Below, piece by piece: positions 28,758-54,059 of a DNA stretch of 64,000 bases (the first letter of the stretch is position 1; the number at the start of each line of letters is the position of its first letter). The translations under genes were made by a program, and so were the position numbers. This DNA comes from Scyliorhinus canicula (lineage: Eukaryota): positions 103,133,811-103,197,810 of the forward strand of contig NC_052162.1 of assembly GCF_902713615.1 (NCBI RefSeq). Reading direction: 5' to 3'. Below the pieces are notes generated by a model. The model did not search any database, was not told the DNA's origin, and was given only the letters and a program-made list of their open reading frames with translations.

Positions 28758-31700
28758 GCTTCAGGAGAGATAGAGGGGGATGTAAAAGGGGTGGGGGAGT
28801 AGCATTACTGGTTAATGAGAATATTATAGCTGTACTGTGGCAGGACACCTCGCAGGTCTCATACAGTGAGGCAATATGGGTAGAACTCAGGAACAGGAAG
28901 GAAGCAATCACAATGTTGGGGGTCTATTACACCACCCCCCCCCCCCCGCCCCTCAACTGCCAGCGAAAGATAGAGGAGCAGATAGGTAGAGAAATTTTTG
29001 ATAGGTGCAAAAGTAACAGAGTTGTTGTGGTAGGAGGTTTTAATGGGACTCACTTAGTGCTCGGGCCTTGGATGGAGCAGAGTTTGTAAGATGTATCCAG
29101 GAAGGCTTCTTGATGCAATATATAGATAGCACAACTAGGGATAGGGCAGTACTGGGCCTGATATTGGGGAATGAGCCTGGACAGGTGGTTGAGGTTTCAG
29201 TAGGGGAACACTTTGGGCGTAGTGACCACAATTCCATAAGTTTTAGGGTACTTTTGGATAGGGGTGAAGTTAACCCTCACATTAAGGTGTTAAACTGGGG
29301 AAAGGCAACTTATGATAACATCAGACAGGAATTTAAAAATTTGGATTGGGTGTGGTTGTTGGAGGGTAAACCAACATCGGACATATGGGGGTCTTTCAAG
29401 CGACAGTTGATTAGGATTCAGAAGGATTCAGGAGAGAATGAAGGATAAGTATGGGAAGTTTAGGGAGCCATGGATAAAGCGAGTGATTGTGAACCTCATC
29501 AAAAGAGAAAAAGGAAGCTTTTGAGTATTTATGAAAAAATGAAAATCGCTTATTGTCACGAGTAGGCTTCAATGAAGTTACTGTGAAAAGCCCCTAGTCG
29601 CCACATTCCGGCACCTGTCCAGGGAGGCTGGTACAGGAATCGAACCATGCTACTGGCCTGCTTTAAAAGCCAGCGATTTAGCTTTGTGAGCTAAACCAGC
29701 CCCTAAATGAAAATCGCTTATTGTCATGAGTAGTCTTCAATGAAGTTACTGTGAAAAGCCCCTAGTCGCCACATTCTGGCGCCTGTCCAGGGAGGCTGGT
29801 ACGGGAATCGAACCGTGCTGCTGGCCTGCTTTAAAAGCCAGCAATTTAGCTCAGTGAGCTAAACCAGCCCCTTTTTATTGCAAAAGGACTGGAGTATAAA
29901 AGTAGAGAAGTGCTTTTGCAATTGTATAGGCCGTTGGTGAGACCACATTTGGAGTATTATGTCCAGTTTTGGTCACCTTAGTTGAGAAAAGACATGGTGG
30001 CATTGGAAGCAGTTCAGAGGAGATTCACCAGATTGATTCCGGGGAGGGGGTGGGTGGGTGGGGGGTCAGGAGGTGAGTGGGTGGGTGGGGGGGGTGGGGG
30101 GGGGGGGTCAGGAGGTGAGTTACTCACTGTCCGATTCTCCAATATTGACTGGGACTCACTGAGTGCTGGGGGCTTAGATGGGGCAGAGTTTGTAAGGAGC
30201 ATCCAGGAGGGCTTCTTAAAACAAGATGTAGATAGTCCAACTAGGGAAGAGACTCTCCTGGACCTGTTATTGGGGAATGAGCCCAGCCAGGTGGTAGAAG
30301 TTTCAATAGTGGAGCATTTTGGGAACAGTGACCACAATTCAGTAAGTTTAAGTGTTGGTGGACAAGGATACAAGTGGACCTTGGGTGAATGTGCTAATTT
30401 GGGGTAAGGCTAATTATAACAATATTGCATGGGAACTGCAGAACCTAGATTGGGGGCGGATGTTTGAGGGTAAATTAACATCTGACATGTAGGATGCTTT
30501 CAAATGTCAGTTGAAAGGAATTCAGGACCGACATGTTCCTGTGCAGAAGAAGGATAAATATGGCAAATTTTGAGAACCTTGGATAACAAAAGATATTGCA
30601 GGTCTCGTCAGGGCTGGGAACAGACAAAGCCTGTGTGGAATATAAGGAAAGTAGGAAGGAACTTAAGCAAGAAGTCAGGGGGGTCACGAAAAGTCATTGG
30701 CAAACAGGGTTAAAGAAAATCCCACGGCTTTTTACATGTACATAAAAAGCAAGTGAGTAGCCAGGGAAAGGGTTGGCCCAATGAAAGACAGGGGAGGGAA
30801 TCTATGTGTCGAGCCAGAGGAAATGGGCGAGGTACTAAATGAATACTTTGCATCAGTATTCACCAAAGAGAAGGAATTGGTGCATGTTGAGTCTGGAGAA
30901 GTGTGTGCAGATAGCCTGGGTCACATTGAGATCCAGAAAGACGGGGTGTTGTGCATCTTGAAAAATATTAAGGTGGATAAGTACCCAGGACCTGATGGGA
31001 TCTACCCTAGAATACAAAAGGAAGCAAGAGAGGAAATTGCTGAGGCCTTAAAATAAATCTTTGGATCCTCACTGTCTTCAGGTGATTTCCCAGAGGACTG
31101 GAGAATAGCCAGTGTTATTCCTTTGTTTAAGAAGGGTAGCAAGGATAATTCAGGGAACTACAGGCCAGTGAGCCTTATGTCAGTGGTAGGGAAATTACTG
31201 GAGAGAATTCTTCGAGACAGGATCTACTCCCATTTCGAAGCAAGTGGACGTATTAGCAAGATACAGCACGGTTTTGGGAAGGGGAGGTCGTGTCTCACTA
31301 ACTTGAGAGAGTTTTTCGAGGAGGTCACAAAGATAGTTGATACAGGTAGGGCAGGGGATGTTGTCTGTATGGACTTCAGTGAGGCCTTTCACAAGGTCCC
31401 TCATGGCAGACTGGTACAAAACGTGAAGTCACATGGGATCAGGGGTGAGCTGGCAAGATGGATACAGAACTGGCTAGGTCATAGAAGGCAGAGAGTAGCA
31501 ATGGAAGGGTGCTTTTCTGATTGGAGGGCTGTGACTAGTGGTGTTCCGCAGGGATCAGTGCTGGGACCTTTGCTGTTCGTAGTATATATAAATGATTTTG
31601 GAGGAAAATGTAACTGGTCTGATTAGTAAGTTTGCGGACGACACAAAGGTTGGTGGAATTTCGGATAGCGATTAGAACTGTCAGAGGATACAGCAGGATT

Positions 31701-32416
31701 TAGATCGTTTGGAGACTTGGGCGGAGAGATGGCAGATGGAGTTTAATCCGGACAAATGGGAGGTAATGCATTTTGGAAGGTTTAATACAGGCAGGGAATA
31801 TACAGTGAATGGTTGAACCCTCAAGAGTATTAACAGTCAGAGAGATCTAGGTGTACAGATCCACAGGTCACTGAAAGGGGCAACACAGGTGGAGAAGGCA
31901 GTCAAGAATGCATACGGCATGCTTGCCTTCATTGGCCGGGGCATTGTGTATAAGAATTGGCAAGTCATTTTGCAGCTGTATAGAACCTTAGTTAGGCCAC
32001 ACTTGGAGTACAGTGTTCAATTCTGGTCATCACACTACCAGAAGGACGTGGAGGATTTAATGAGGGTGCAGAAGAGATTTACCAGGATGTTGCCTGGTAT
32101 GGAGGGCATTAGCTATGAGGAAAGGTTGAATAAACTTGGTTTGTTCTCACTGGAACGATGGAGGTTGAGGGGCGACCTGATAGAGGTCTGCAAAATTATG
32201 AGGGGCATAGACAGAGTGGATGGTCAGAGACTTATTCACAGGACGGAGAGGTCAATTCCTAGGTTTAAGGTGCCAGCAGCAAGGTTTAGAGATGTACCAG
32301 GTAAGGTTTTTTTTTACACAGTGGGTAGTGGGTGCCTGCAACTCGCTACTGTGGAGGCGGTTGAAGCAGGGACAAAAGTGGTGTTTAACGGGCATCTTGA
32401 CATGAATAGGATGGTA
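28758..32416 (+). mobile_element. Mosaic of decayed CR1 fragments (with a second-family SINE tandem pair at ~29540-29870)
   Basis: APE and RT motifs in ORFs 29068, 29982, 30781, 31123 and 31889; rearranged order. Confidence 0.8.
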
Positions 32417-32600
32417 AGAAGTCTTCCAACACCAGGTTAAAGTCCAACAGGTTTGTTTCAAACCCGAGCTTTCGGAGCACAGCTCCTTCTTCAGGTCCGA
32501 AAGCTCGTGTTTGAAACAAACCTGTTGGACTTTAACCTGGTGTTGGAAGACTTCTTACTGTGCTCACCCCAGTCCAACACCGGCATCTCCACATCATGAA
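32417..32600. repeat. Head-to-head Penelope-type ends forming a palindrome
   Basis: AAGAAGTCTTCCAACACCAGGTTAAAGTCCAACAGGTTTGTTTCAAAC...GTTTGAAACAAACCTGTTGGACTTTAACCTGGTGTTGGAAGACTTCTT. Confidence 0.8.
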
Positions 32601-34052: not shown

Positions 34053-34092
34053 TCGCTTGGAGAATTATGAAGAAAAATATCTTTGCTGACAT
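34053..34092 (-). CDS. Leader exon of V2
   Basis: ATG TCA GCA AAG ATA TTT TTC TTC ATA ATT CTC CAA GCG A|GTGGGT (MSAKIFFFIILQA); 40 nt, phase 1, in frame with the V2 exon. Confidence 0.75.
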
Positions 34093-34183
34093 TTTTCTGG
34101 TTCAGCAGACAAGGTGATAATCAGGAGGCACGTTTGTGCTGAAGTCTGTGCCAGGATTCGACACTGTACGGAAATGAGCGCTG

Positions 34184-34878
34184 CGCATGCAATCCATTTG
34201 TTACAACCTATTACCACCTATGTGCATGCAATCCATTTGTTACAGCCTATTACCACCTATGCGCATGCAATCCATTTGTTACAGCCTATTACCACCTATG
34301 CGCATGCAATCCATTTGTTACAGCCTATTACCACCTATGCGCATGCAATCCATTTGTTACAGCCTATTACCACCTATGCGCATGCAATCCATTTGTTACA
34401 GCCTATTACCACCTATGCGCATGCAATCCATTTGTTACAGCCTATTACCACCTATGCGCATGCAATCCATTTGCTGCAGCCTATTACCACCTATGCGCAT
34501 GCAATCCATTTGCTGCAGCCTATTACCACCTATGCGCATGCAATCCATTTGTTGCAGCCTATTACCACGTTTGCGCATGCAATCCATTTGTTGCAGCCTA
34601 TTACCACGTTTGCGCATGCAATCCATTTGTTGCAGCCTATTACCACGTTTGCGCATGCAATCCATTTGTTGCAGCTTATTACCACGTTTGCGCATGCAAT
34701 CCATTTGTTACAGCCCATTACCGTTGCACTTTCAATCCATTTGTTACAGCCTATTACCGCGTTTGCGTATGCAATCCATTTGTTGCAGCCTATTACCACC
34801 TTTGCGCATGCAATCCATTTGTTACAGCCTATTACCACGTTTGCGCATGCAATCCATTTGTTACAGCCCATTACCGCG
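34184..34878. repeat. 39-bp minisatellite, ~18 copies
   Basis: Unit GCGCATGCAATCCATTTGTTACAGCCTATTACCACCTAT; the repeat ORFs here (AHAIHLLQPITTY etc.) are by-products. Confidence 0.95.
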
Positions 34879-35063
34879 TTAAGAAGTCTTACACCACCAG
34901 GTTAAAGTCCAACAGGTTTGTTTCAAACACCAGCTTTCCGAGCACTGCTCTATAGGAAGGAGCAGTGCTCCGAAAGCTAGTGTTTAAAACAAACCTGTTG
35001 GACCTGGTGTTGTAAGACTTCTTACTGTGCTCACTCCAGTCCAACGCCGGCATCTCCACATCA
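34879..35063. repeat. Head-to-head Penelope-type ends forming a palindrome
   Basis: Same family as 32417-32600. Confidence 0.8.
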
Positions 35064-37379
35064 TATTACCACGTTGACAGCATGAGCATGAATCCGAGAT
35101 TGACAGCCAACATCGAAATTGCGATTGTCAACCTCCTCTTTGTGATGAGTCCCAGCATCCGATTAGTGCATTGCTGACAGGGGCGGGGCAAAAATACAGT
35201 GAGCGAAAGAAAGAAATCAAAGGTTACGATATTACGATTCCTGACCACACCCAACAGTGACTAACATACTGGACCGAAACCCCAATATTTTATTTTATTG
35301 AAGACTATGTGGAAAGAATACTTAACTTCAGGAGCGATTTCACGAAGAAATGGGGAGTTGATATTTTAAAACAAAACTTTATTGTTAGCACAGTATTACA
35401 ACCTTGAACATGACAGCCGAAAGTAGCTTACAATTACCCCTTGAACAACACTACTCAATAAAGTAAATCTAATACCCTTAATCTCCATATTGCCGATTAA
35501 GCAAAAAAAAAACACTCAATTCCTCCTACATCCCAATGGGACAGAGTAATACTTGCTTTACGGAACAGATTTCATTCCTGTTAGAACCCGCAGACTCTGG
35601 CTGGATATCTTCAAGAAGCTATTTCAACTGGTTTGTTTCTGCTTGCCCTTTGTCCGCAGGCAAGTCTGCCATGTATTAAATACTATTAATATTTATTTAA
35701 ATTTTCCTACTGTGAAATCAATCTCCCTTACTTATGTTAGCCAGATCAGAACCCAACTTAAAAATGCTTTCCCAAAATCTCTGAAAGCCTTAGCTCCACC
35801 CGTCTCCCCAAGCACCATCCCCCCAAACTGAAAGCCAACTGAATCCCAATGCAGAAAACGCATGAAATTCACAGTGATTACCCCTAGTCGAACAACATTG
35901 CATTGATCCAGGCTTTTACGATGGTGAATTTACCACTGTCTCCGATAAGCTTTCTGGTCTATCAAAACAAGATTGGAAAAAAATAACTACTGCAGTCAAA
36001 CACACTTGAGCCCAGGTTTTTAGCCTTTAGATTGCCAAATGTTTATAATCTAACATCTTGCATTTGGCACAGATAAAGACAAGTGAACACTCATATTTAA
36101 CAAACCGGGGTGGGTCAATTCAATACTTTGCATGAAAGGTTAGAAATTTACTAATAATACTCTACATACTCCAAACCCATGACCACTACCATCTAGAAGG
36201 ACAAGAGCAGCAGATATCTGGGAGCCCCACCACCTGGAGGCTCCCCTCTGCACAAACAATGTTCTTCTATGTTGGTATGGATCAGTTGCTGGCTGAAACA
36301 GGAACAGAAACGTGAACATCAATTCAGATATTTATCGACATTATTTCAGTCTTTGGATACAATGTCAGCTTACGGGTGATCTAAGTTCAAGGGTGTGATG
36401 TTATGCAGTCAGTTCATGCACTCGATGATTTCGGAACCAGATCTAGGATCATCTCCACCAGACACCCCATTGTTTTAGTTAGTCTGCCCCGCACAGCAGA
36501 ACACATACTGGGTATTGATTTTATGAATGCCCACAGCCTGTCGTTCGATCCAGTCAATCAGTGTGTCTGGAGAATGGCAAAATCGGACAGAGCACCCGCA
36601 ACTCTCACAGTGGGAGAGTATGCAAACAGGATTAGCGCAGTAGGCGACTATTGTTTCGACCCGACCACGCTTAGTACGGACAAACAGGTTAGGGCAGTTT
36701 TGAACAGACACAGGACAGCATTTGCCAGTCACCAGCACGACTGCGGCAGAATGACTGGACAAGTTCAAGTTACTGGACCTGACCCGAGACCACAGAGACA
36801 GTACCGATTTCCCCTAGAAGCAGAGGGAGAAATTGGAAAAGTTATAGAGAGCTTATTAGAGCAGGGTGTACTTAGGACAGTAGCCTCAACTAATAATGCA
36901 CCTATTTGGCCAGTGAGGAAGCCCGACGGATCATGACCATTGATTATCGGGAACTCAACAAAGTAACCCCAGCAGTAGCCCCCACGGTAGCAACAAGTCC
37001 CAAGACCATGCTCAAGCAGGGACTCCACTCCAAATATTTCACGGTATTGGACATTAGCAATGGCTTCTGGTCAATCCCATTGGCAAAAGCGTGCAGTACA
37101 AATTTGCCTTCACATTTAAAGGACAGCAAGGATTCCACAATTCACCCTCCATTTTCCACTGACAGCTGGCAAATGGATTAGCAACATTTTCCCGACCCGA
37201 ATGTCTGGTACAGTATGTGGACGACCTATTACTGCAGACAGACACCAAGGCAGAGCACATCACGCTTCTGTCCGAACTCCTGGAAATTTTACAAGACATT
37301 GGATGTAAAGTTAACCCCAGAAAGGCCCAAATATTAGAGAATCAAATTATGTATTTGGGTACAGTCATCACGCACGGCA

Positions 37380-39432
37380 GGGTCGGGTGCTTTTTGGCGC
37401 CGCCATTTTAGCCCCGATCTTTTGGCGCCATTGTTTTGGCGCTAGTTGTTATGGTGCTCATTTTTTTGGCCCACCACGGTTTGGCGCCAAAATTAAAATT
37501 TAAGCATGTAAATAAATGGAAACTAGGATTTAAGATGAATTAGCTTGTGATACCAATCAATTATCCCTAACAACAGCGGGATTCTCCGTTTCATAGAATG
37601 TTGATAGTCTGCTAGGGTCCTGGAATGAAATTAAACTAGGATAAAAAACAAACCCTTTATTCGGGATAAAAAAACGAAACCTTTATTCTGGACAAAAATA
37701 CGAAATCTTTATTCTTGATAAAAATACTAAACCTTTATTCTGGCATAAAATATTTATGTAAAAGATATAATTAAAACTCAGTAATTTAATATATTTCGTA
37801 ATTGTGGGCTATACCATGCAAATATTCTAGTGGTTCTCTCTCATCAAACTGGCGCACAATATTCAAAATGCGCTCGTCAGCTCTCACATACTTAAGAAGT
37901 TTTTGTTTTGGAGCATGGCCAGCAACCAATTGTTCATAACATGCATCTCAGTTGTTTTGAATTTTTCTCAGTCCATCAATGAATTTCCATATAATTGGGT
38001 GGTGAACTCCTAATTCCGCATATACCTTTCTATGTGCTGCTTCTGCGTGATTGTTAGTTCGGTCCTCTCCGTTGATTGTGCGATTGTACTGGTTCCACAT
38101 CTCTGAAGGAAAAAGAGGGGGCCGCCTGCCATTGCCTCTTCTCATTGGTCATCCTACGTAATTATCTTCAAACCAGTTAAGCAGCAATTGAAGTTCTACC
38201 GGCAAGTCTTCGGACAGGGTATCTATGTAGTTATCCAAGTGAGGAACAGGCACGAAACATAAGGCTATGATCATTTTAGCTCTTAAAGCAAATTCGGAAT
38301 CACTGTTATATAAAACCTGGCACCCAATCTGTTTAAGGTGCTTGTACACATTATGAGCGAAATGGAAGAAACTCCTGGAAAACATTCTTCCATTGCAGAA
38401 ATAGCTGCCTGTTCAAAGTCACAAGAAATTCTTCCCGGATTTAATCCTGGGATTGCGTCATGAACCATCTGAAACATGCGTACATATGTTGCACGCCTTT
38501 TATTTGGTAATAAGGCATATAAAACTGGATGAACTCCTCCATGCCTTCTTCCCATAATTACATAAACCTGTGTAAATAACGGAGGAGATAATTTAAAGGT
38601 CCCATCAACATACCACACTTCAGAATCTAATAGAAACACAGTCCAGCTCTGTCTCCCAAAAATTAAAATTCTATCATCTTCATGACCACTGTCTGCTATT
38701 AAAAAGTTCTCACGTTCACCATTGTTCTTCATATAATGTTGTAATCATCAGGGATCACTAATTCACGAACATGAACAGGATTTGGAGGAACGAGGTTCAT
38801 TTGATTTCTTCTTCTCCTTACAATTTGCTTCATTGCGTCTGCAGTTGGAAGTACTCCTTGAGCGGCTTGAGAAATATTTTCCGTACAAGAACTTAAAATT
38901 GCCGATGGTTGATCTTGACTCTCTCCAGCCCGGCGCTTTACACTTGTTTTAACTACAGCTACTTCCACGCTTGCTGCTGAAGCACCATGAGAATGCTCAT
39001 TTATTTCCTTTATCACTTCATTGTTTTTAGTGTGTATACGGGCTTTGCACTCGTTCTTGTTTTCACATCTCCAAAACTTCATCAAAGTGTCCTTCTTGCT
39101 ATGCTTGTCGAACACATATAGATATCCATTGTGAGAAAATTTAGGTTTGTCTTTCTTACTTAAAATACTTTCAGCCATTTCTACTACTTTTAAATTTTTA
39201 CAGTGAAATTCTAAGACTATGTTGCGCTACAGAACTAGGTGGAATTCTGGTGGAACTAGGTACAGAACTACATTTAAAATGTTGGTTTTAAAAGTGGGTA
39301 ATTAAGTAGGTAATTAAGATTCGGCGCCAAATCGTTGAATGCCAAAACAATCAGCGCCAAAACAATTCAGCGCCAATAAAACAGCGCCAAAAGATCGGCG
39401 CCAAAATGGCGGGGCCAAATGGTACCATTCCC
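37380..39432 (-). mobile_element. MULE/MuDR-type DNA transposon inserted in RT of element A
   Basis: Imperfect TIRs (GGG...TTTGGCGCCGCCATTT / AAATGGCGGGGCCAAA...CCC), many TTTGGCGCC subterminal repeats; the host frame ITHG|KREIE is interrupted. Confidence 0.85.
37786..39178 (-). pseudogene. FLYWCH-MULE transposase, frameshifted
   Basis: GYLY...FWRCENKNECKARIH (FLYWCH); YVDGTF, LYALLPNK, ISCDFE, FFHF, RTNNHAEAAH. Confidence 0.88.
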
Positions 39433-41774
39433 AGGCAAACGCGAGATCGAGTTCAAAAGAATTGAATCGATTGTCAAATTTCCCCTTCCCCAGAATGTTT
39501 CAGCCCTCCGGTCGTTTTTAGGACTGGTTGGGTACTGTCAGAACCATATCGACGGTTTTGCGAAAAAGGCAGCCCCACTCTCAGACCTCCTTAAGAAAGG
39601 AGCCCCTTGGGAATGGCTTACGCAGCATACAGAGGCTGTGGAAGAGTTAAAGAAGGCCCTTAGCGCAGCACCCGCGCTACAAGTTCCAGACCAACTCTCC
39701 CCCTACGCAATAGAGGTAGCTAGCACCGATCTGACCCTCTCGGCCGTGCTCCTTCAGGAACGGCACGAGCAGCTACGACCAGTGGCTTATGCCTCCAGAC
39801 TTTTAGACCCCGTAGAACAAGGATTTTCAGCCTGCGAGAGGCACCTACTAGCAGTTTTTTGGGCAGTTCAGTACTTCTCGTACATTACCGGACTCAATCC
39901 CATCACCATTTTGACCGAGCACACCCCCACACAGTTACTTTTAGACGGTCGACTGAAGGACGGTTCAGTGAGCCAGATAACAGCAGCTAGGTGGACACTA
40001 CTGTTACAAGGACGGGACATAACAGTTAAATGGACCAAAACACACACATTTTTAGCGGACAACCTACAATATCCAGGACAACCCCATGAATGCGAGATAG
40101 TAGCACCCCTACACAACACAGGACCCTTCATTGCCAAAACGCCCCCCAGGAAGATAGGGAATTCAAGCCAGAGCCCCCAGGACACAGACACGTGTGCCCC
40201 ACTAAAGATATATGTGGACGGTTCATCCACAGTTTTAGATGGCGAACGCATCACAGGATGCGGGATTTATGTTGAGGATGCGCAGGGTCGCGCACTAGAA
40301 GAGATCGCATTAAAATTACCAGGTCACTTAGGCACGCAGGCAGCAGAGCTCACGGCAATTGCTTATATAGTGGACCACCCAGATTCGTTCCCCAGCCCAG
40401 GGGACATATATTCGGACAGTTTATATGTCTGTAACAGTTTAACAGACTTTCTACCCCTGTGGAGGACATGAGGTTTTGTCACCGCAGACGGGAAGCCCCT
40501 TCCATCAGCCCCATTACTCCGCCATATCCTAGAGAAGGCAAAGGATAGGACATATGGCATCATCAAAGTTAGAAGTCACCATAGGTCATCCCCCCCGGAA
40601 ATGTAAAAGCCGACGCACTGGCTAAAGCAGGTTTCAGGCGAGGTCACTTTTGGACACCCCCAGCTAGCTCACCAGCTAGCGCCCCTGTGAGTGCAGTTCA
40701 GGTCTCACAGACAGAAATCGAAGATTTAGTACAGGCACAGAAGCAGGCGAAAATCTCCAGGAGATTTTTAAAGGAAACTTCGTGGCCCAGTACGATAAAT
40801 TCAAACACGCTTTGACCACACATGAGGGTGTGATCATAAAAGATAAATTGTATGTGGTTCCTGAACAGGACAGGAATCAAATGATTGCCTTATTCCATGA
40901 CGGCCATGGACACCAAGGGATTGACCCTACTACAACACACCTAAGACAACTCTGTTGGTGGCCCAACTTAAGACAAGATGTCACCCACTACATAGAGAAT
41001 TGTTTGATTTGTGCGCAGAATAACCCGGAGAGGTATTCGAAGAAGGCACAACTCAGCCACACTCGCCCCGTTAATGGCCCCTGGACAAACCTCCAGATCG
41101 ATTTTATAGGACCATTGCCCCCTTGCAGGAATGGCTATAAATATGTTCTGGTGGTCATAGATACCTTTACCAAATGGGTAGAGGCATTCCCTTCATGCAC
41201 CAACACAGCTAAGACAGCTGCAAAGATCCTGACCCACCACATCTTTACGAGATGGTGTCTCCCCAGAAGTATAGAGTCAGATCAGGGATCTCACTTTACA
41301 GGACGGGTCATGAAGAACGTCCTGACCATATTCGGAATAAAACAGAATTTTCACATTGCGTATCACCCCCAATCAAGCGGGATAGTAGAACGCATGAATC
41401 GGACCCTAAAATCGACCCTTAGGAAGATGGTACAGGAGAACAATTCGACTTGGGATTCAGTGCTCCCATTCGCTCTAATGTTCATTAGGAATACGGTTTC
41501 ATCATCTACAGGTTTCACCCCTCACACACTCATGATCGGACGCCCTATGAAAGGATCAGAATTCCTTTTAGGACTAGACATGACCAGCCCAGAAGTGACA
41601 GCCCTCACACACGAGAAAGCAGTCAAAGGATTAGTTGAGACTGTAAGGTCTGCACAGTTAGCAGCCGCAGTAAAATTGGGAAAAAGACGGAAACAGAGCA
41701 TGGCCTGTTTCAACAAGAATGTACACCCCACAGAATTTCAGGTTGGGCAACAGGTTATGCTATCTGTTTATAAC

Positions 41775-42454
41775 CAGCGCCGGCTCGAGGGTTGCTGGCG
41801 CCCCGGGCAAGCTGAACTTCGGCGCCCTTAGGGGGGGGGGGGGGCGAGGGGGGGGGGGCCGAGGGGGGGCGGGGTCGAGGGGGGGGCGAGGCCGGGGGGG
41901 GCGAGGCCGGGGGGGCGAGGCCGGGGGGGGGCGAGGCCGGGGGGGGGCGTGGCCGGGGGGGGCAAGGCCGGGGGGGGCGAGGCTGAGGGGCGGGGCCGAG
42001 GGGAGGGGCGGGGCCGGGGAGGGGGGGGCGAGGCCGAGGAGGGGCGGGGGGCGAGGCCGAGGAGGGGCGGGGGGGCGAGGCCGAGGGGCGGGGGGGCGAG
42101 GCCAAGGAGGGGCGGGGGGGCGGACCCGAAGGGGGGCGGACCCGAGGTCGGGGCGGGGGGGCGGACCCGAGAGGGGGGCGGACACGCGGGGGGGCGGACG
42201 CGGGGGGTGGACCCGAAGGGTGGGCGGACCCGAGGGCGGGGCGGTGGGCGGACCCGAGGGCGGGGCGGGGGGCGGACCCGAGGGGGGGCGGGGGGGACTG
42301 AGCGGGGGGGCCGCCCTGGGGGCGGGCAGCCACCGCGCATGCGCTGGTTGGCACCGGCCCAACTGCGCATGCGCGGGACCCGAGTCTCTGGCGCCCCCGA
42401 GCACATGGCGCCCCGGGCGACTGCCCGAGTTGCCGGTGCCTTGAGCCGGCCCTG
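41775..42454. mobile_element. Non-autonomous hAT (MITE-like), extremely G-rich, inserted in IN of element A
   Basis: TIRs CAGCGCCGGCTCGAGG / CCTTGAGCCGGCCCTG; 8-bp TSD TTTATAAC at 41767-41774 and 42455-42462. Confidence 0.88.
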
Positions 42455-43985
42455 TTTATAACCCCAGCACGTTTTTGGCTCCTAAATTTTCCGGCCCGTA
42501 CTCAATTTCGGACAAAATCAGCCCCTCAGTATACAGAATAAAATACCCAAACGGTAAGACTCCGTGGTTTCATATTAACCAGCTAAAGGTTATGGAACAC
42601 AGTCAAACCACACACACCATGTCCTGCTGGATGCAGCAGAACACCTCGCTCCGCCCACAAGAGACACATTTCCACCCTCCCCCTCACAGACCAGTTCCTC
42701 ATCGGACTCGACCTCGACTCCGCCCACTTACTCCAGACCATGCCCCGGAACGCCCACAAGCTGCCACAGCAGAGACAGTGACAGTGACTGTGAGACTGAG
42801 GACAGCCACAGCACTCCACCCTACAGCCCCCACTTCAGCGGCTACGACCCCGACTCCAGTGACCCCATGGAGATCACCTACATTAAAAATCCAGACCCAC
42901 ACCTACACCCACCACTGACGACCCCGACAACGCTCCTTCAATTTTAGACCCCACGATTTGGCACAGGGACAATTCTTGGCGACTTGTCCGCAATGACGAG
43001 AGTGACCCCCGGTCACACAATGCAACAATTGCATGCCTGATCCATACAAGGGTATGGGATCCGGGAGAAGAGGATGACTTGATGTCTGACTCCCGACACG
43101 GCAACCCCTTTGCGACCCTGTTCGCAGAGAATGAAGAGAAGTGAGGTGTCCAGATGATGTAAAAAGAGGAACCGCTTGGGAGAAGCGCTGTCCTTTCTGA
43201 TGGCACCTGCACGTATGTTGTTTGTATGTTTGTTAAATGTTTCATTTGGAGATTGGCCACTTACTTTTCAGCTGAAAAGCTTGTGACCACCTCACATGCA
43301 CGTTAGTTTGTCCGCAGATATTTCTGAGAACTTGACACATCTGAAATGTCTGGAGCCCAGCTCAACTTATCACAAGGAGCATCTTGACTCCTCCCCTTTC
43401 TGTTTTTAGGTGCCCGTCTATTCTGGGAATAGAGGCTGCAATTCCACTACGACTACATTCTTGCCCGTTCATTTCAGGTTGCTCAGGCAGTGGAGAAACG
43501 GCATTGAGGACCCTCCCTGTCTGAGGACCCCCCTTTGGTCAGCTAAGCTCGGGTACAGCACAGCACGCCCTACCCGGGGATCCCATACCCGTCGTGGCCC
43601 ATACGCAACTCATTCGACCTTTTCGTTTCTAAACGTTGGTTTCATTTTTGTTTAAGGTAGCCCTTCGGCCGCCACTCCATATGCTATTTACATCCAAGAA
43701 CATTTTGGGATGGTAAATTTCAACACTCTGCGAGACGGCTCGCACTGGTTTAAGATAAGTATATGTCTGGTCCTAAATCCGTTTTTGGAAAAAAAAATGA
43801 GGGAGTCATATGGAGGTGACCACCATAAAGGGAAAATTGGAACAAGAGGACAGATATACTTAAAGTCAAGATATTAAGCTGAATACTAACAGATAATATG
43901 CTTGATCCCCTTAGCTTTCGGACGTTCAGGAAAGGAACTGAGGCAACAACACAGCAAGATCCCAGAAGAGAAGAGAAGGGAAGAG

Positions 43986-44342
43986 ATGAAGAGCACTCGA
44001 ATTGCTATGGTTTTAGCTATTGTGCCATCTGTGTGGTTGCGTGTGGACGCGTGCCCCCTTTCCCACAGTACAACGTTTGCTAACTTCTCCCAAACCCAGA
44101 CCACCCCCAGCCCAGTCAATGGTAACAGTACCCCGACCTGGTGTACCAAATTTCTGACATGGTACTCCTTGTCATATGTAATAGAATCACTTTTGGTGAT
44201 TGCAGTCCTATGTATCATAGTCCAGACCCTCAGGATGAGGAAATGGAGAAGGAGAGCCCACCGCTCGCAGGCCTCAACAGTGTACAGAGTACAATCCCCC
44301 ATTTTCGGATTCCACCAATCCCCCCAACGCCTTGATGTGTAA
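43986..44342 (+). CDS. Putative 118-aa type-I membrane glycoprotein in the env position of element A
   Basis: MKSTRIAMVLAIVPSVWLRVDA (signal-like); S/T-rich ectodomain with NFS and NST sequons and 2 Cys; TM YVIESLLVIAVLCIIVQTL; polybasic RMRKWRRRAHR; uninterrupted frame. Confidence 0.6.
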   Translation: MKSTRIAMVLAIVPSVWLRVDACPLSHSTTFANFSQTQTTPSPVNGNSTPTWCTKFLTWYSLSYVIESLLVIAVLCIIVQTLRMRKWRRRAHRSQASTVYRVQSPIFGFHQSPQRLDV

Positions 44343-44701
44343 TAAAAGATTTAATTTTGATACGATCTGTAAATAAAGATTATTGCGGATGTATTATAAT
44401 GTTCTGCTCTCGACTGCCGAATCAGAAAACGAAATGTAAAGATGCTGTTGTATGAATGAGTAAGGGTTTAGAATGTTATAGAATGCTTTAAATGTGAGAT
44501 GAGAGTAGTTTATTGAGAGAGTTAGAGGTTCCCGATTCGAATTGGTAATGCATGTCCCCTTTGACATAGCGCCAATTAGAAACTGTTAGTTAAATTTTTT
44601 TTGCCATTGTTGAGGAAATAGAAGCCATGGAACTCGCTGAGGTCAGGGGACCCAAAGACACCGTACTTAGGTGATCCTTCATGATTTCTCATGAGGATCA
44701 C

Positions 44702-44711
44702 AAGGAGGGAG
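44702..44711 (+). promoter_or_regulatory. Polypurine tract of element A
   Basis: AAGGAGGGAG immediately before TGTAG. Confidence 0.8.
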
Positions 44712-45505
44712 TGTAGCCACCGAAGTTGGCCATTTCCCTAAATACAAAATGGAGGAACGCAAAGCATACAGGATAAAATGGACAATGTTTGCAGCCCCAG
44801 CAGGCTGCACCTAGCAGGTGTGGATTCTGTCTGCTAAGAAAGCAAACAGCACCGAAACGAACGTTCCGCATACTAATGAGGCAATCACCGGGATAATTAG
44901 CATGTTAATGGAACAATTCCAGATACAATGGACACAAATGGGGAAGCAACTGCAACATTGTAAAGGATACCAGACACTCAGGCACCAACAGGGTTCGAGA
45001 ACAAAGAGCCTGAGAGCCCGCCCAGTAGCTAAGGAACAGCCTCAGTATTGGGGGGATTCAAACATATCGATTGGGAAGAGACCCAATCGATTCCAAGCAG
45101 GTAAGGGAGTCCGCCCAAAGGGGTGCGGATCCCTGGGACCTATAAAAGACAGGTCCCACACATGGTTCAGTCTTCTCGTCCAGCCCTCCTCTTTCTTTGA
45201 CCAGCACTCCTCCGTGGACCAGCACCTCGACCAGCTTTTGCCAAGAAGACCCTGAAGGAGAGAGAGAGAGGTTCGGACAGCAGCCGCCAGCAAGTAAGTG
45301 TCTCACAACGATCGCTACCAGAGATAGACACTCCTGACCCCTTTTAACTTATACCAACCTGAAGTCTGCAGACCAGAGCAGAGCAAGAGGCCTTGTTCCC
45401 TGATCCGGCAGTTCCTTCGAGATAAGTATTAGTTTATTTAGTGGTAGGAATAGCTTAATCCTTTTAGTGTGTGCATGGGTAGTTATTATAATTGTATTAT
45501 AATAA
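44712..45505 (+). repeat. 3' LTR of element A (3'-truncated)
   Basis: Starts TG after the PPT; TATAAAA at 45141; breaks off at AATAA ~45505; loosely similar to the LTR at 56551-56825. Confidence 0.75.
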
Positions 45506-45518
45506 CCGGTGACGCCAT

Positions 45519-48500
45519 TGTAACGATTATTACTTATGTTTTACTTTTGATCAAATTCCTAACCGAGTTGTATTCATGTTATCTTGATCCTATAATGTAT
45601 AAGAATCGCCTTCTTTTCCTGTAATATCGCAGACTTGGGACGGACTCAGCAGTTGTAATTGACTGCTTTCCGACTCCAAGTATCAGCTATTTTCTGCTAG
45701 CAGTTCTAATTAGTGAATAAAGTTCAGTTTTGCTTATCTAATGAATGCTGTTTGAATTTCTCTATCACAGTCAAGACGTGGGGAAAATATAAAATACAAC
45801 ATTTGGCGCTGCGAGAAAAAATCCAATATCCTGAGTGAGCTTCCATGAGGGACTGAGAAAAAGTGATCAAAGCCATGACCGGAGTAAAGAGACGGACGCC
45901 GGCACAAGGTAAGATTGACCTTGGTCTCTCTCTCTCTCGGATCTGTGCTGCGACCCCTCATCCCTGACGGAAGTAACTAAACAGGTGACGGTTCTCGAAT
46001 CTAAATTTGACTGTGAGTACATTTTTTTGGTGTAATTAGCAGCAGGTCAGGGACCTTGTTGATCTCGTTTTTCATCCGCATCAGATTTATACAGGCTGTC
46101 AATAAATTTGGGTCAGGGACCCTTTGATTAAGTTTGGGGTCAGGGACCCTGTCAATATTTTTTTCGGGTCAGGGACCCTGTCAGTAATTTTTTGGGGTCA
46201 GGGACCCTGTCAATATTTTTTTGGGTCAGGGACCCTGTCAGTAATTTTTTGGGGTCAAGGACCCTCCAATTTGATTTGGTACCAGAAATTTTGTTTTGAG
46301 CGTTTTTTTTGCCTGGGCACATTTTACTGACATTATGCGACAAACTTTAGATAAAACTAGCGGCAACTCCCCTCTATTTTTCATGTGTTTTTCAACCCCT
46401 TCCCAAGAACGTAATATTCGAAGATTGGCTGCAGCGCTGCTTTAAACAATAAATTAGGTAACAATATCTGGCCACTAGGTTACACAGGGATCTTGGAACT
46501 TTGACAATAGCATTGATGCAGAAAAAAAAAGCAATCTGGAGAAAAAAAAAGGCCGGTTTCAAATTGTTTAATTTTACAGTGGAAAAAAACAGTCTGCTTA
46601 ACGCAACGAACAATCACTATTAATGAGTTGGAGAGATAAAGCCCGCAAAAGAGATATTAATGAGTGTGTGAACGGTAAATTGAAAGATTGAAGACTTTAA
46701 AATTGTAATGTGACCTTTGGTATGGAAAACAGTCAAAATGATAAAGAGCAATCTGGCAATAACAAACGTCCTGTTAGCAGAAAAGTAGGACTGGCCAATA
46801 AGATTATAGGAAAGAAGGATCCTCCCAGTTGCTCTGGCATGCCGATGTTCCCCTATTCAAGCGATACGGGACAAGGAGGATTTGAACCCTGGACCCACCC
46901 TCATTTTGCGCTCCCCGATCTTGCAATTCCACTGTCCTAAGTCCTGACTCCCACTTCTGATCCCATTACCAATGAAACTTCTGCTAACGTATCCCCCATA
47001 GCGACACGCACTCGGTCACAGACGCAAGCCTTAAATATCGAACAACCCTTCTCTACGGAAAACATGATAATTGACTAAAAGATGTTGATTAAACGATCCA
47101 CAATAAGGGAATTATAGAAGTGAAGTTAATAAGTTACCAATTTAGAAGCATGCTGGCAATAATGACTAAAGTTTAACATTGCTTTTGAATGAAATTTAGT
47201 AGATCAGATGATGTTAACTAACTACTGCTTGGAATGTTGTACTGGCCTTATTATGATAACAAGTGGTTCTTCTGAAGGACAACAAAATGCGTACTCGAAT
47301 TGTTGTTAAACTAATGGCAAAACATTCATAATTCCTCTTGCAAATGTTCCCAAAGTTGTTCAGTTCACACTATATCAGTTTAAAAGAAAGTAACTTTAAG
47401 AATAAGAGTAATTGAAATATGAATAAGTTTTTAGATTGCGTCAAAAGACGTAAATGGCATCACACCAAGTTCTCCACCCATTAGATTCTGCAGGAAACAT
47501 TAACCATTTCAGCAGACAGTTGGTCTTTTCTGAATTGACAAAAGAAATACATCTCAGAGAACAGCTAATACCTCTAAGATTAATCAGTGCAAATTGACTT
47601 AAATGGAATAACACAGATAAAGTTTTCGAAGGAGAATGAAAATTTTTGTTCAAAAATTTGTCCGCAAGGACAAGGGCTGAATCCAAGAGAGAGAAAGAGA
47701 GACAGAGGAAGAGATTGAAGGAGAGAGAGAGAGCCAGCGACAAGAGACAGGAACTGTTAGAGAGAGCGAGAGAGAGCGAGTCAGGGAGAGGCAGAGACGG
47801 AGAGGTAGGCAGATAAAGAGAAAGAGCAACAAGAGTTCCAAAGACAGACAGAGTTATGTAGAGAGGGAGAGAGATAGATAAGAGAGAGAGGGAAAGAATT
47901 CATATTTCATTTTTCAGACTTTGACTTTAAAAATTGTTTCAAGCTGTGATTATTTGAAAGAGGTAAAGAGATATCGATGCCAACATGGTCCTTGTTATTA
48001 CCTGACCAATATCCAAAGTTCTGTGAACTCTTTTGTAAAGCAGTCAGACAATTGATAGCTACTGTCAACCTATTTAATTTTTGCAGAATTGACAGGTCTT
48101 GAAAACGGAATGCGCATATGGAAAAGAACCAAGTTAGGCTATCCACCTTGATTAGAAAGTTGCTGATTAGACACTGCAAATTCGGAGCGGTAATACAGTG
48201 CATTGATAATGGTATGTTTATAGAACTGTCTCAAATACGAGGTCACCAGCTGCAAGATTTAATAACTTCTGTGCCTGCGCCTGATTGCTCTCTGTTCTAT
48301 GCTGGCAGCTAACGTTAACCCTGAGTACCACTGTTTAAAACACCTGATAGAGTCCAGATGAGAGAATATAGTGACCCAAGCCTTGATAACCGCATTACTA
48401 TATCACCTATCCCGCAGGCCCAGCTTCGAAACTTTCCCCTATTCACTACTCCACAGTGGTGGTCGATTGATTTTGACCCCTCACACTTTTCACCTCCCTT

Positions 48501-48583: not shown

Positions 48584-50652
48584 GTACCTCCCCTCTGTCC
48601 AACATCTGCTTCAAACTTGCGATGTCTATCCCTAACCTTTTTTCATTGACACGTTTTGTACAGTGCACATTATCCGATAGGGATTTATTGTCAATGCAAC
48701 ATTCAATAGGTATATTTCCCAAATCCCCTTATCCCAAAATTTCTGTCAATATCTGAGATATATAAAAGGCCATATCCACTGCCTCTACATCTCAGCAGCC
48801 GAAGTGCTTTTGACCACTCTCCTTGTTTTCTTTGTTTCCCACACAAGAGGGCAACATTTACCATTGTTCCCCAAAAGGAAAATTATAAAACCTCCTGCGC
48901 TTGAAACCCCATCACATAAATTTGCATAGGACGCATCACTATAAACTATGAGTTTCATTTGCCTAAGGTCACCTAAAACCGGGAACCTAAAAACACACTC
49001 CTGCATTTTTAGTTTGACCAACGCTTTATTTGCTCTTATTATGTCTTCCACTTTGGGATCATTCATTTTTGTACTCAACTCTAAGACATCAAAACTCACA
49101 TCCGGTCTAGTCTGTCTATCTAACCAATTCAGTTGCCCAATTAAACTTTGTGGTTGCTCTTTTTCCATCCTTGAAACCATTGCGTCTTTTTGTGAAACCC
49201 GGCCACGACTAATTGCTACTGGGCTGATGCTTTCCAAATAAGATTGCTGACATAAAGTTGCCCCTAACTTAGTCTGTCCGATTTCGAGTCCAATATATTT
49301 AAATGCACCGGAAGCCTGACTTCCAACCTTGAATTCTTTCCTCAAACCAGAGATTACAATAGCTTCAAAATCACTAGTCCCACCCCACACAAAATCATCG
49401 GCATGCATCACAAAGATGCCAGAAATATTTCCTTTATAGTGCCAGTAAAACATTGCGGATCTGCTTTCAACTGGCAACAGCCTAACTTTAACAAAACTGA
49501 CCTTACCGAAAAGTACCAGACTCTAGATGCATCATTCAATCCATATACACATTTGTTCAACTTGCAAAGTACCCCTTCTGTGCTAGCTGCCTCTTTCGGA
49601 GGACGGAGAAAAATGTCTCTTTGGAGCTGATGCCCCTGCAAAAAGGCAGCTTTTATATCTATAGATGTGCATTCCTTTCCCTTTGTGGCTAATAGAGCCA
49701 AGAAGATCTTTAAGACCTTTCCTGCCGTAGGTGAATTTACCCTGAAATCCTGATCTTTACCCTGAAATCCTGATCTTGCCTTATAAGTTCCATCCGGAAG
49801 AAGCTTTTCCGTACAAATCCATGTGTGGGATAGAGCTCTTTGTCCCCTATCCGGTACTCCCGTGTATACCCCAAATTCACTCCAACTATGCAGTTCTTGC
49901 TGTTTGGCATCTTTGATAACCTTTTCATCTAATTTATTGGAAGCCACCAAAATTCACGTGCATGTGGGCTTCTACTCCTATTAGTATTCGTAGTCTTACT
50001 CATGTTCCGAGATCTTGATAAACTACGTCCCCTCTCCCACCTGGTATCTCATTCTGTACTGCTACTGCTTGATCTTTCCCTTCTGCTGTGCGATGTCCTT
50101 TCAATAGTTCTCGACGTTTTCCTGCGGACCTGTTCACTATCCGATGTACTATCTGAACTGGCATTGCGTTTTTGTGCCCTCCATTTTAGAACTTCGTTTT
50201 CCTAATCCATTGTCTTGACTCTCTCCCCTGAATGCTGTACATTCAACCAATGTTTATACTTTCCAGTGGACTTCCCTGCTCGACTAATAACAGTTGCATC
50301 CTTCCATTAACTAGACCCTTCAAGCAAGTATGTCACTTTTGTACCAAATTTTGGCATTCGCCCTTTTGGAAAAATGGCCTGTTCTAATTCATCAGAAGTG
50401 TTGTGTTCCTCTACAGAAACCCTGTCTACATCAGTTAACTGGTCCTCATAGTTCTGCAACACGCGCATACCAGATGACTCTGGTTCCTCGTCATGTCTGT
50501 CTGCTCTGTCTAAATTTGAAAATTTGTAATCTCTACTCATTAACCTTGATGAATGTACCCTAACAGTTTGATTACCATGTTGCAAAATAATTGTTTTGCC
50601 ATCTATGCCTATGATCTTCCCTGGGCCTTTCCATTCATTAGAATAGTCATTA

Positions 50653-51009
50653 GGGGCAGCAGGGTAGCATGGTGGTTAGCATAAATGCTTCACAGCTCCA
50701 GGGTCCCAGGTTCGATTTCCGGCTGGGTCACTGTCTGTGTGGAGTCTGCACATCCTCCCCCTGTGTGCGTGGGTTTCCTCCGGGTGCTCCGGTTTCCTCC
50801 CACAGTCCAAAGATGTGCGGGTTAGGTGGATTGGCCATGCTAAATTGCCCGTAGTGTCCTAATAAAAAAAAGTAAGGTTAAGGGGGGGGGGGGGGGTTGT
50901 TGGGTCACGGGTATAGGGTGGATACGTGGGTTTGAGTGGGGTGATCATGGCTCGGCACAACATTGAGGGCCGAAGGGCCTGTTCTGTGCTGTACTGTTCT
51001 ATGTTCTAT
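50653..51009 (+). mobile_element. HE1-type SINE within the copia element
   Basis: Consensus match. Confidence 0.9.
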
Positions 51010-52863
51010 GTCTCTCTTATCGTATACCATGTCTCTTTGCTGAAAAATGGCATCTGATGGCCTTACATTATGTCTTAAAGCTCAGCAAATTCTTTCAGAG
51101 ACTTCTGCTTCAAGAAAGGCTTTTCTACTGCTATGTAATGCATTTAAATGCTCAGCAAAAGCAGAGCTAATTTTAGTCCCTTCCCAAGCTGGAGGCTTGT
51201 CATCTAAGATGGATGGAATTTTAGGGTGTCTACCAAACACTAATTGATAGGGACTATAGCCCCCAACCATCTGCAATGAATTATTTGCATGTACCGCCCT
51301 TGCTAAACTGAATTTAACTTGCAGTTCGGTCTAACTGCCAAAATTTTCCGGATCATGTCATCTATTACTGCGTGGTGTCTTTCACACACACCATTACTAA
51401 ATGGGCTTTCCACAGCCATATTCATAATTGTGATGTTCACATTTTCACACATATCCCGACACTCATCATTAGCAAATTCAAAGCCTACTTGTGACAATAA
51501 GTGATTTTCATTTTATTTAATTCCATTGTCCGTAACAAATTTTGCCAGTGGGCCCATTCCTGTCTCTATCCATTTTTCCACGATTTGATCCAGAATTACC
51601 CTCTTTTCTTTACTTCGTATAATCATTGATTGAATAAATCTGGTTGCTAAATCTATAAAATGCAAAATAAATATATTATTGGCTTTATCCCAGATCTTAA
51701 GGTCCATGGCCACAATGTCATTAAAATCTTTGGCCAAAGGTAAGGTTACTATCGGTCGTGCTGGCGTCCTTCTGTACTTCCAGCAAACTTCACAGCGATC
51801 ACTAACCTGTTCTATCAGTTTAGTATAGTCTTCATCCCTTATCACTGCATCCTTCAATAAATTTGTCAGCCTCCAAGGAGACGGATGCGCAAATTGCCTA
51901 TGCAGTTTTAACAAGCCTATCAGCTAAAGACTCATTTCCAACTGCCATTACACATCCTTAACAACTGTACTTGAAATATTATTTGTCAGGAATGGAATAC
52001 AATAATGTCCCGACTGTGTAAATTGTAAGTCCACCGTCTATTCAAAAACTGTTGCCTTATCCTGTTTCATATCCAGTTTCATGTGTGCTTTCATCATCGA
52101 CTGTCTTCTCAGAATACATCTCAGATACATCTCACTTGTATCTCACTTGATATAACATCCGTGCTAATGAAATGATTCACTCTGGCAATATTGCAAGGGA
52201 TCACCACTCTTTGCAACGACTTCAGAGTATTATGATCCCCAAACCTGAAACTTGTGGAACTTTCAAATTCCTTAACCTTGTTACGATTTTCAGCATTCAA
52301 GGAGTCCAGGTAACATTTTAACCAGTCAATTCCACACACAGTAGATGTGCAGCCACTGTCCAATACAGCACAATTGAACGATTCTGCAACCAACACCCTC
52401 ATTACCGGTGTAAAACAGCTTGTTAATAGGACAATGCCTTCTTTCTGGTCACTATCTTTTTCCTCTTCTGACCCCTCCATGTCATGTGTCGCTTCAAACA
52501 CTCTATTATAACATTTTGGGCAGTTGAAAGCATAATGGTATTGAGAGTCACACATAGAAAACATCGATTTATCATACCCCGGGCATTTCTGGGGTTCATC
52601 TTCCTAATTGTAGGTTCTAACTGGGTTTCTGTCTTCATACTTTCCGGGTCCCGATCTCCCTCTATAGTCTTGGAACCCGTTTATAGCCGTGCGATTTTGC
52701 CATCCTGTTAATAGTGTGTCTTCTATATTCTGCTTTATTGCAGGCTGAACTATTTGGGTCATCAGAGCCATCGGAATTGAATGTTTCCCCAGAAACTTTT
52801 TTAAAGCTTCTGTCATCTGATCGAATAAGGTATCCTGATCCGCAATCTGAAGTCCTATCAAAA

Positions 52864-53222
52864 CATAGAACATAGAACATAGAACAGTACAGCACAGAAC
52901 AGGCCCTTCGGCCCTCGATGTTGTGCCGAGCAATGATCACCCCACTTAAACCCACGTAACCCGTATACCCGTAACCCAACAATCCCCCCATTAACCTTAC
53001 ACTACGGGCAATTTAGCATGGCCAATCCACCTAACCCGCACATCTTTGGACTGTGGGAGGAAACCGGAGCACCCGGAGGAAACCCACGCACACACGGGGA
53101 GGACGTGCAGACTCCACACAGACAGTGACCCAGCCGGGAATCGAACCTGGGACCCTGGAGCTGTGAAGCATTGATGCTAACCACCATGCTACCGTGAGGC
53201 CCCATTGCTACCGTGAGGCCCC
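52864..53222 (-). mobile_element. HE1-type SINE within copia gag, with a duplicated 5' tip
   Basis: Consensus match; CTACCGTGAGGCCCC occurs twice at the head. Confidence 0.88.
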
Positions 53223-53788
53223 TAAAACCAGGAGCCTATCCATATTGCTTACTCTAGCACAGTCAAGTAATTTAAAGGCCAACACAGACTGTGGAAATTC
53301 CAGGTTGTGTTTCTGCAGCCTTTTATATAGTCTGCTAAATTCCTTTATATAGTCTTCCATGGAGAATTCCTCTATTTTCCAGAACCTATCAATATCCAAC
53401 CATGCTTCATACGCACTTAACAAGTCATCCTTTTTATAAATCTTATCCATGTAATGTAATAGAGTCTCCAGACCTTCTTCTGAGTCTAACTCTTCCAATT
53501 CCACCTCAGAAAACACTTTGCTCCAGATTTTACTGTCATAGGTAGAGAAAGATCCAATGCCATACCTTGTTTTCTGTTTCCCAAGGCAGTTACCGTAGTC
53601 CACATAACTACTGCACTTCTCCATGGATCGTACGATTCCCTTTCAGAAAATAGGGGGGGGGGGGGGGGGGTCGTCATATCCAGCCACCTTTTAACCTCGG
53701 TTCAGCCATATTTTTGTTTTTTTTTCTCACTCACTCCTTGGTTTGGTCTTGAAAAGTTGTATCTTTCAACCCTTCACACTTGCACAGC

Positions 53789-53806
53789 AACCGTCCTCTG
53801 CTACCA
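53789..53806 (-). promoter_or_regulatory. Primer-binding site, tRNA-iMet (copia)
   Basis: TGGTAGCAGAGGACGGTT, 17/18 to the animal initiator tRNA 3' end as I recall it, 2 nt after the LTR. Confidence 0.9.
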
Positions 53807-53808
53807 TT

Positions 53809-54027: not shown

Positions 54028-54059
54028 TCGCAGACCCAAGTTGGGGAGACCGAACACCG

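Follow-up and report, generated by a model that had tools for sequence, protein, structure and literature searches.

A decayed endogenous retrovirus of the catshark Scyliorhinus canicula, probably related to snakehead retrovirus (SnRV), with a predicted small membrane-protein gene in the place of env

A stretch of 64,000 nucleotides of Scyliorhinus canicula DNA (GCF_902713615.1, contig NC_052162.1, positions 103,133,811 to 103,197,810, forward strand), here called the window, contains a retrovirus-like element with a pol gene encoding reverse transcriptase (RT), two RNase H domains and integrase, and with a 118-aa open reading frame (ORF) in the env slot. The first RNase H is referred to as the tether and the second as RH2. 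An earlier note on this sequence had reported a degenerate Ty3-type RNase H, a second RNase H of retroviral type and an integrase. All of the motifs that it quoted were located using a motif position scan, and comparisons with Pfam and PDB agreed with these assignments. The features of the element were as follows (position in the window, strand, feature, basis):

36451..36936, plus: C-terminal half of the protease and start of the RT, the 5′ end of what survives (tblastn of 10 close pols)
36939..37379, plus: RT fingers and palm, with DISNGFWSI, QGFHNSP and YVDD (RVT_1 1.6e-5 and 1.4e-10; tblastn frames)
37044-37082, plus: VLDISNGFWSIPL motif of the RT (motif scan)
37214-37234, plus: YVDDLLL of the RT (motif scan)
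37380..39432, minus: DNA transposon with decayed FLYWCH and MULE transposase and imperfect terminal inverted repeats (FLYWCH 2.5e-13, MULE 3.4e-11)
39434..40080, plus: RT thumb and tether, the degenerate Ty3-type RNase H (RT_RNaseH_2 5e-23, RT_RNaseH 4e-18)
39710, 39833 and 39911, plus: tether motifs IEVAST, CERH and LTEH, respectively (motif scan)
40205..40638, plus: second RNase H, RNase HI-type, with D-E-D-H-D residues (RNase_H 9.4e-8)
40208, 40337, 40409 and about 40577-40582, plus: RH2 motifs IYVDGS, QAAEL, YSDSLY and H, respectively (motif scan)
40597-40614, plus: GNVKAD of RH2, in another frame, past the stop at 40469 and a frameshift
40851..41774, plus: integrase HHCC and core domains, D-D35-E intact (Integrase_H2C2 6e-19, rve 3e-15)
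About 41100, 41280 and 41388, plus: D-D35-E of the integrase (motif scan)
41775..42454, no strand assigned: non-autonomous GC-rich element (about 85% GC) with short CAG-starting terminal inverted repeats (TIRs) and an 8-bp target-site duplication (TSD), TTTATAAC (TSD and TIR scan)
42455..42590, plus: integrase C-terminal SH3 domain with a GPY-like motif (SH3_Tf2-1 4e-7, Integrase_p58_C 4e-5)
42590..43144, plus: low-complexity S/T/P/D-rich frames (about 550 nt), the last an 85-aa acidic ORF (ORF list)
43145..43985, plus: non-coding stretch (about 840 nt) with splice-acceptor-like sites ending at 43409, 43477 and 43929 (pyrimidine/AG scan)
43986..44342, plus: 118-aa ORF, intact (homologues, alignment)
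44702..44711, plus: polypurine tract AAGGAGGGAG (sequence)
44712..45506, plus: putative 3′ long terminal repeat (LTR) with a TG start and TATAAA at 45141 (sequence)

The main tblastn matches of the 10 close pols begin at 36451-36784, in the middle of the protease, and none lies further upstream. The 5′ LTR, primer-binding site (PBS), gag and protease active site were absent from the element by tblastn of the close pols, self-BLAST and Pfam. Similarly, no Pfam match was detected in three frames of 35070-36451, and ARAGORN revealed no tRNA relevant to a PBS. Two frameshifts (near 36935 and near 37092) disrupt the surviving RT, which also has a stop at 37160 and, near 37127, a deletion that keeps the frame. 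A single open frame then holds the RT thumb, RT_RNaseH_2/RT_RNaseH and RNase_H matches, in that order. RH2 is interrupted by a stop at 40469-40471 and a frameshift near 40597, and a further frameshift lies between RNase H and integrase. The frames at 42590..43144, possibly a pol extension or an accessory ORF, had no Pfam match and no match among 92 pols, and their 85-aa acidic ORF had none in the ESM Atlas. At the 3′ end, the polypurine tract, TG start and TATA box suggest that 44712..45506 is an LTR; it ends near 45506, where another LTR-like element truncates it, and self-BLAST detected no second copy within the window, so that the element has one LTR-like end only. Lacking a 5′ LTR and gag, and containing stops, frameshifts and two nested DNA transposons, the copy is dead.

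The thumb-tether region matched the RT/RNase H of murine leukaemia virus (MLV) best in PDB (2e-26), versus 6e-13 for foamy Pol and 1.5e-10 for Ty3 RT. Relative to gypsy RNase H, the catalytic columns of the tether are altered: the D of TDAS is A, the E of EKE is H and the D of TDH is E. The tethers of close relatives are similarly degenerate at the catalytic carboxylate columns, and the degeneracy is therefore a trait of the lineage and not decay of this copy. RH2 aligned with RNase HI-type domains, as the earlier note had anticipated, namely foamy RNase H (1e-6), human RNase H1 (6e-5) and bacterial RNase HI in PDB. A single-sequence AlphaFold model of the RH2 piece had a pLDDT of 40.7 and was set aside. 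The best PDB match of the integrase was that of prototype foamy virus (5e-40), with Ty3 at 2e-27. The order protease-RT-RNase H-integrase with a D-D35-E integrase matches that of canonical Retroviridae, as does a tether followed by an acquired RNase HI-type domain; indeed, the view that this pair of domains marks Retroviridae and their relatives was upheld. The architecture was observed in the copy; by analogy with established knowledge, the old RNase H would serve as the tether and the acquired domain as the nuclease.

To place the element, the thumb-tether-RH2 region was used as query in a protein search, in which 267 of 7997 candidates matched at E ≤ 1e-10. Among the named matches with full coverage, pols of frogs, Xenopus and birds ranked highest. 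Coelacanth, turtle, foamy, gamma-/epsilon-like and loki-motif pols were added by an RT search that started from a Rhinophrynus protein. In a careful 37-row tree, the RT fell inside the canonical retroviruses with support of 99/98, in a group with frog, coelacanth, Xenopus and fish pols (85/90) near the Ovex1-like clade. A quick RT tree of 92 rows agreed, giving the canonical retrovirus grouping at 99; the element's row included 6 residues of the transposon end in this tree but not in the 37-row tree. Forcing the element together with 6 loki-motif rows was rejected by the approximately unbiased (AU) test on the RT tree (p-AU 0.012), and 6 gypsy rows formed a separate group at 100/100. RT identity was 57% to Rhinophrynus KAM4696090.1 (P0002), 35-38% to the 6 loki-motif rows, 33-36% to 2 foamy viruses and 28-34% to the 6 gypsy rows. 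RH2 grouped with one pol on the gamma/epsilon side (96), away from loki and foamy (97). The RH2 and integrase trees were quick LG+G4 trees, each retaining 45 of 53 reference rows, with weak deep support.

The RT motifs LEQGVLR...PIWPV, LDISNGFWSI, QGFH.SP.IFH and QYVDD, the dual RNase H and the cartilaginous-fish hosts are shared with snakehead retrovirus (SnRV) and the clade Huo ERVs of Xu et al. 2018 (PMC6001957). In a hand count over four chosen conserved blocks of the RT (57 positions, published rows of PMC9040795), the element agreed with SnRV at 46 positions, Loki-Str at 28 and Odin-Aeq4 at 26. Very similar RT text occurs in the consensus proteins an_ro_ERV1 (eel), si_gr_ERV3 (cyprinid) and ca_mi_ERV1 (elephant shark) of PMC6001957, which the text of its S2 Fig lists under Clade Huo beside SnRV and the whale-shark Rh_ty_ERV2. 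The RT also grouped with P0003, which by eye closely resembles the published si_gr_ERV3. Thus, the earlier placement at the retrotransposon-retrovirus boundary did not survive the RT support within canonical Retroviridae, the AU test and the match to SnRV motifs. Because the RT nests among canonical retroviruses and its motifs match those of SnRV, a dual RNase H is to be expected.

In SnRV, env precedes a 3′ ORF and there are several accessory ORFs made by splicing (PMC12193657), and elephant-shark endogenous retroviruses (ERVs) clustering with SnRV are env-associated (Han 2015; lineage I was selected on a downstream env, PMC4422223). The catshark copy differs from SnRV, with its full env and accessory ORFs, in having no env and one small signal-stalk-anchor gene. 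The frog and coelacanth pols annotated as "protein NYNRIN-like" (Rhinophrynus KAM4696090.1, Aquarana, Pyxicephalus, Latimeria XP_064407972.1) have the same protease-RT-tether-RNase H-integrase order, and the RT shares 54-57% identity with the three that are included in the 37-row tree, but their pol stops shortly past the integrase SH3 motif. Ovex1, SpeV and CrocERV37-39 form a neighbouring clade in the RT and integrase trees, possess the tether and RNase H, and are 33-37% identical across thumb-tether-RH2. In contrast to the multi-copy catshark family, Ovex1 is a single-copy domesticated locus that has lost the RT and integrase catalytic residues and has an 873-aa ORF3 (PMC2717909); env is present in the Ovex1-related crocodilian CrocERV37-40 (PMC4299795).

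Many of the bird "protein NYNRIN-like" entries (P0007-P0021) are Ovex1 orthologues, from ostrich to woodpecker, that have lost YxDD; a kiwi entry lies in the same cluster as that of ostrich, and the entries are misnamed domesticated retroviral pols. The bird matches share with Ovex1 the protease, RNase H and integrase motifs that PMC2717909 quotes for it.

The small ORF at 43986-44342 has a signal-like N-terminus, a 29-aa T/P/S stalk with an N-glycosylation sequon, a WC-aromatic segment and a transmembrane anchor, followed by a polybasic patch and a tail of about 27 aa. A search of 1.84 billion representative proteins of any length yielded 7 matches, 4 of them strong (E 1e-42 to 3e-16) and all 4 from Scyliorhinus; homologues turned up in this genus only. 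A profile search returned 18 proteins, of which 11 hold the ORF, from 10 gene models (2 of S. canicula and 8 of S. torazame). Six of the 18 (HEPACAM2, besides P0239) and P0261, which has no match to the window, were due to host parts of the query alignment and were rejected. The alignment contained 10 rows, the window and 9 gene models, and left out P0239, whose N-terminal frame is shifted, and P0252, an isoform of P0251.

The rows form three subgroups, with 41-54% identity between groups for the non-truncated rows. The N-x-S/T sequon occupies one column in all 10 rows, despite a stalk conservation of 43%. A signal-cleavage-like site lies 28-34 residues ahead of the fixed WC in 10/10 rows, and 6-8 K/R follow the anchor in each of the 9 rows reaching that far. 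In 8 rows, identity was higher by 0.29-0.48 in the core than in the N-terminal part, where random decay would give 0 ± 0.10. As the search itself favours conservation of the core, the sequon gives a less biased indication of selection. The ORF is thus a genuine gene of the family, and hydropathy and motifs predict that it encodes a small type I membrane glycoprotein. Its observed conservation suggests that selection acted on it during diversification of the family.

No env-length or host homologue of the small ORF was detected using Pfam, the ESM Atlas or the representative-protein search. A Pfam match to TMEM156 (E 0.003, below the cut-off) was discounted as generic transmembrane similarity, and the ESM Atlas returned only look-alikes under 0.9 (TMIE, TMEM213 and others).

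At least 6 named host genes have an isoform that ends in the small-ORF exon, joined about 20 codons before the Met, in agreement with the acceptor-like site at 43929. These gene models point to splicing into the exon and suggest frequent exonisation through the ERV splice acceptor. Catshark isoforms ending in the ERV exon (P0239, P0251-P0257, S. torazame RefSeq) include those of HEPACAM2-like, SUGCT, B3GAT1-like, KIAA1958, CFAP36, PTGER3 and a galectin-domain protein. The membrane tails on several catshark RefSeq isoforms look spurious and are explained by this apparent splicing.

No remnant of env was found by Pfam in three frames of 42590-44714 of the one copy, and the interval from pol to the polypurine tract is too short for a usual env. 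The absence of canonical env claimed earlier was thus confirmed for the examined copy, which in this respect departs from canonical Retroviridae and, because env is absent, is not an intact retrovirus. ERVs that lack env are still classed by pol. As SnRV and the Ovex1-related crocodilian ERVs have env, its absence is best read as a secondary loss. This absence was observed in the examined copy, and we lean towards a loss of canonical env throughout the family.

An active ancestor would have undergone reverse transcription and integration as does any retrovirus. It would have descended from env-bearing ancestors, with canonical env subsequently lost. Loss of env favours intragenomic spread; since env would have been lost, the family would most likely have spread by intracellular copying in the germ line. 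A spliced mRNA that used the acceptor at 43929 probably served for expression of the small gene. Judging from its layout, the protein would most likely be an accessory surface protein, either a shrunken env reduced to signal, anchor and tail or an SnRV-style 3′ accessory gene, and not a virion fusogen.

Based on these data, we consider it likely that the element is a dead, 5′-truncated ERV of an SnRV-related group (clade Huo, in the neighbourhood of Ovex1, SpeV and SnRV), belonging to a multi-copy catshark family that lost env and kept a small gene in the env slot. Several points weigh against this assignment. The integrase tree (81-84) leaves the element's group mixed with loki-motif integrases; Wang and Han likewise obtained incongruent integrase trees (PMC7947760). 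SnRV, Odin, Tat and named Gmr1 were outside the trees, and the link to SnRV comes from a by-eye motif comparison and the tip order in figure text, not from a computed tree. The "loki" rows were labelled by their CPFGY motif, not by database names, and the element's own subgroup reached only 85/90. As for the small ORF, the catshark homologues are gene models, biased to open frames and a conserved core, and the ORF is linked to pol in the examined window only. Finally, the absence of env was seen in one deletion-prone copy.

A possible, less favoured alternative is that the element is the same SnRV-like ERV, from a complex retrovirus family with the order pol-env-small ORF, from which env was deleted in the examined copy or sub-lineage only, the small ORF being an ordinary 3′ accessory gene. 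SnRV, with its env, 3′ ORF and spliced accessory ORFs, provides a precedent; the copy is already without its 5′ half, and 43145-43985 contains several acceptor-like sites. Against a copy-specific deletion, no env remnant was found in the three frames of 42590-44714, and none of the 7 any-length matches was an env-length protein with the small-ORF anchor.

The small protein might instead have taken the place of env as a cell-cell fusogen resembling FAST and sORF2 proteins, so that the element could pass from soma to germ line without an envelope, as retrotransposons of the Drosophila MDG1 group do. Such proteins are small and have a single anchor, a short ectodomain and a polybasic patch, and sORF2 occurs in an env-less LTR element (10.1101/2025.03.14.642691). 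The catshark gene likewise lies downstream of pol and encodes 113-120 aa with a short ectodomain, one anchor, a juxtamembrane polybasic patch and a conserved aromatic pre-anchor segment. Counted from the cleavage-like site, its dimensions fall within the published ranges (60-210 aa, ectodomain 10-50 aa, tail <150 aa), and at least 3 K/R occur within 15 aa past the anchor in 9/9 rows. However, the MGxxxS/T myristoylation signal and single hydrophobic segment of these proteins were not found: none of the 10 rows starts with MG, and a signal-like second hydrophobic segment precedes the anchor. That segment and the N-glycan sequon are outside the sORF2/FAST criteria as given in the excerpts of 10.1101/2025.03.14.642691. 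The pre-anchor hydrophobic moment is low to moderate (0.19-0.42), no sequence similarity to FAST proteins was detected, Atlas matches were below 0.9, and a small transmembrane protein with a polybasic patch is a common design. The host element also differs, being of a vertebrate retrovirus lineage. We therefore regard a fusogen as unlikely. Similarly improbable is the bolder proposal that a catshark retrovirus lineage dropped env family-wide and kept a signal-stalk-anchor glycoprotein of about 115 aa, in at least 3 subfamilies, as a minimal cell-contact or fusion device. If true, a lineage of Retroviridae would have spread from cell to cell without an envelope, and Retroviridae is not among the families for which the excerpts of 10.1101/2025.03.14.642691 list such proteins.

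It is very unlikely that the element is primitively without env and lies at the boundary between retrotransposons and retroviruses, close to Odin and the lokiretroviruses. The RT carries the retroviral (P)QGFHNSP form in place of the PFGY..NSPAE signature of loki and Odin, the AU test rejects the loki grouping, RH2 lies apart from loki and foamy, and relatives carry env. The env of lokiretroviruses is Mononegavirales F-like, and none was found in the element by Pfam in three frames of 42590-44714. The RT of Odin is sister to that of loki and has FVDD and PFGY motifs, both of which the element lacks in comparison with the published rows. These differences outweigh the likenesses: a tether with a second RNase H, the absence of env from the examined copy as from Odin, the integrase tree that puts loki-motif integrases in the same broad group, integrases that are broadly related (PMC7947760, PMC9040795), and H2C2 and SH3 integrase domains as in gypsy. 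Sharks are not mentioned in PMC7947760, according to term searches of the accessible text. A gypsy element, Tat-like or other, with an independently acquired second RNase H can practically be dismissed: gypsy proteins fill much of the lower match list for the tether region, but their matches extend over only about half of the query and no RNase_H domain is found in them by Pfam, the gypsy rows (none labelled Tat) separate at 100/100 with 28-34% RT identity, and YVDD, QGF and the best PDB match to MLV point elsewhere.

As a missing link, the element has no value: two RNase H domains are the norm in its clade, from which shark members are already published. The novelty lies in the small membrane gene that occupies the env slot; in all else the element is a decayed, unremarkable representative of a retroviral clade already known. 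Nesting of the RT in a described family, which the earlier note had treated as decisive, was found at the level of family but not of organisation, as the small env-slot gene was not found described in print. This search covered neither subscription journals, Repbase/Dfam nor bioRxiv supplements. The excerpts of PMC10435555 and of a chondrichthyan Env preprint (10.64898/2026.05.06.723177) do not describe the catshark family; the Env screen of the latter required ORFs of at least 400 aa. The gene may illustrate what an SnRV-like lineage keeps in the env slot once env is lost. Being intact and short, the ORF is directly assayable for surface display or fusion.

The span first described as one element contains two later DNA insertions, and its homology to pol starts at about 36451. 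The FLYWCH/MULE transposon is a later insertion that splits the RT and is no part of the retrovirus. Its ends have a 5-bp near-duplication only, and its subterminal TTTTGGCGC motifs are repeated. Mutator elements make longer target duplications, of 9-11 bp. The GC-rich miniature inverted-repeat transposable element at 41775-42454, which we take to be hAT-like on the length of its TSD, is a later insertion splitting the integrase.

The second LTR-like element adjoins the 3′ end at 45519-45801 and continues to about 48900. It has TG...CA ends, AATAAA at 45716, a PBS-like TGGCGCTGCGAG at 45804 and a leader with 27-29-nt tandem repeats at 46103-46265; its decayed coding-like sequence was without Pfam matches. 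Beyond it, a decayed Copia-type element occupies 48785-51923 on the minus strand (RVT_2 5.7e-17, weak rve), with a repeat resembling a short interspersed element (SINE) inside it at about 50650-51010. Upstream of the retrovirus, a 39-nt tandem array of about 20 units spans 34065-34992, and its flanking palindromic repeat also occurs at 32414-32597. A 168-nt tandem duplication at 29537-29872 was called twice as tRNA-Phe(aaa) by ARAGORN and is probably a tRNA-derived repeat or chance. In the outer parts of the window, 1-33400 and 52000-64000, fragments of long interspersed elements with strong GC skew are dense and a SINE-like repeat of 340 nt is abundant. The copies at 62-2407 and 56826-59173 are 97% identical.

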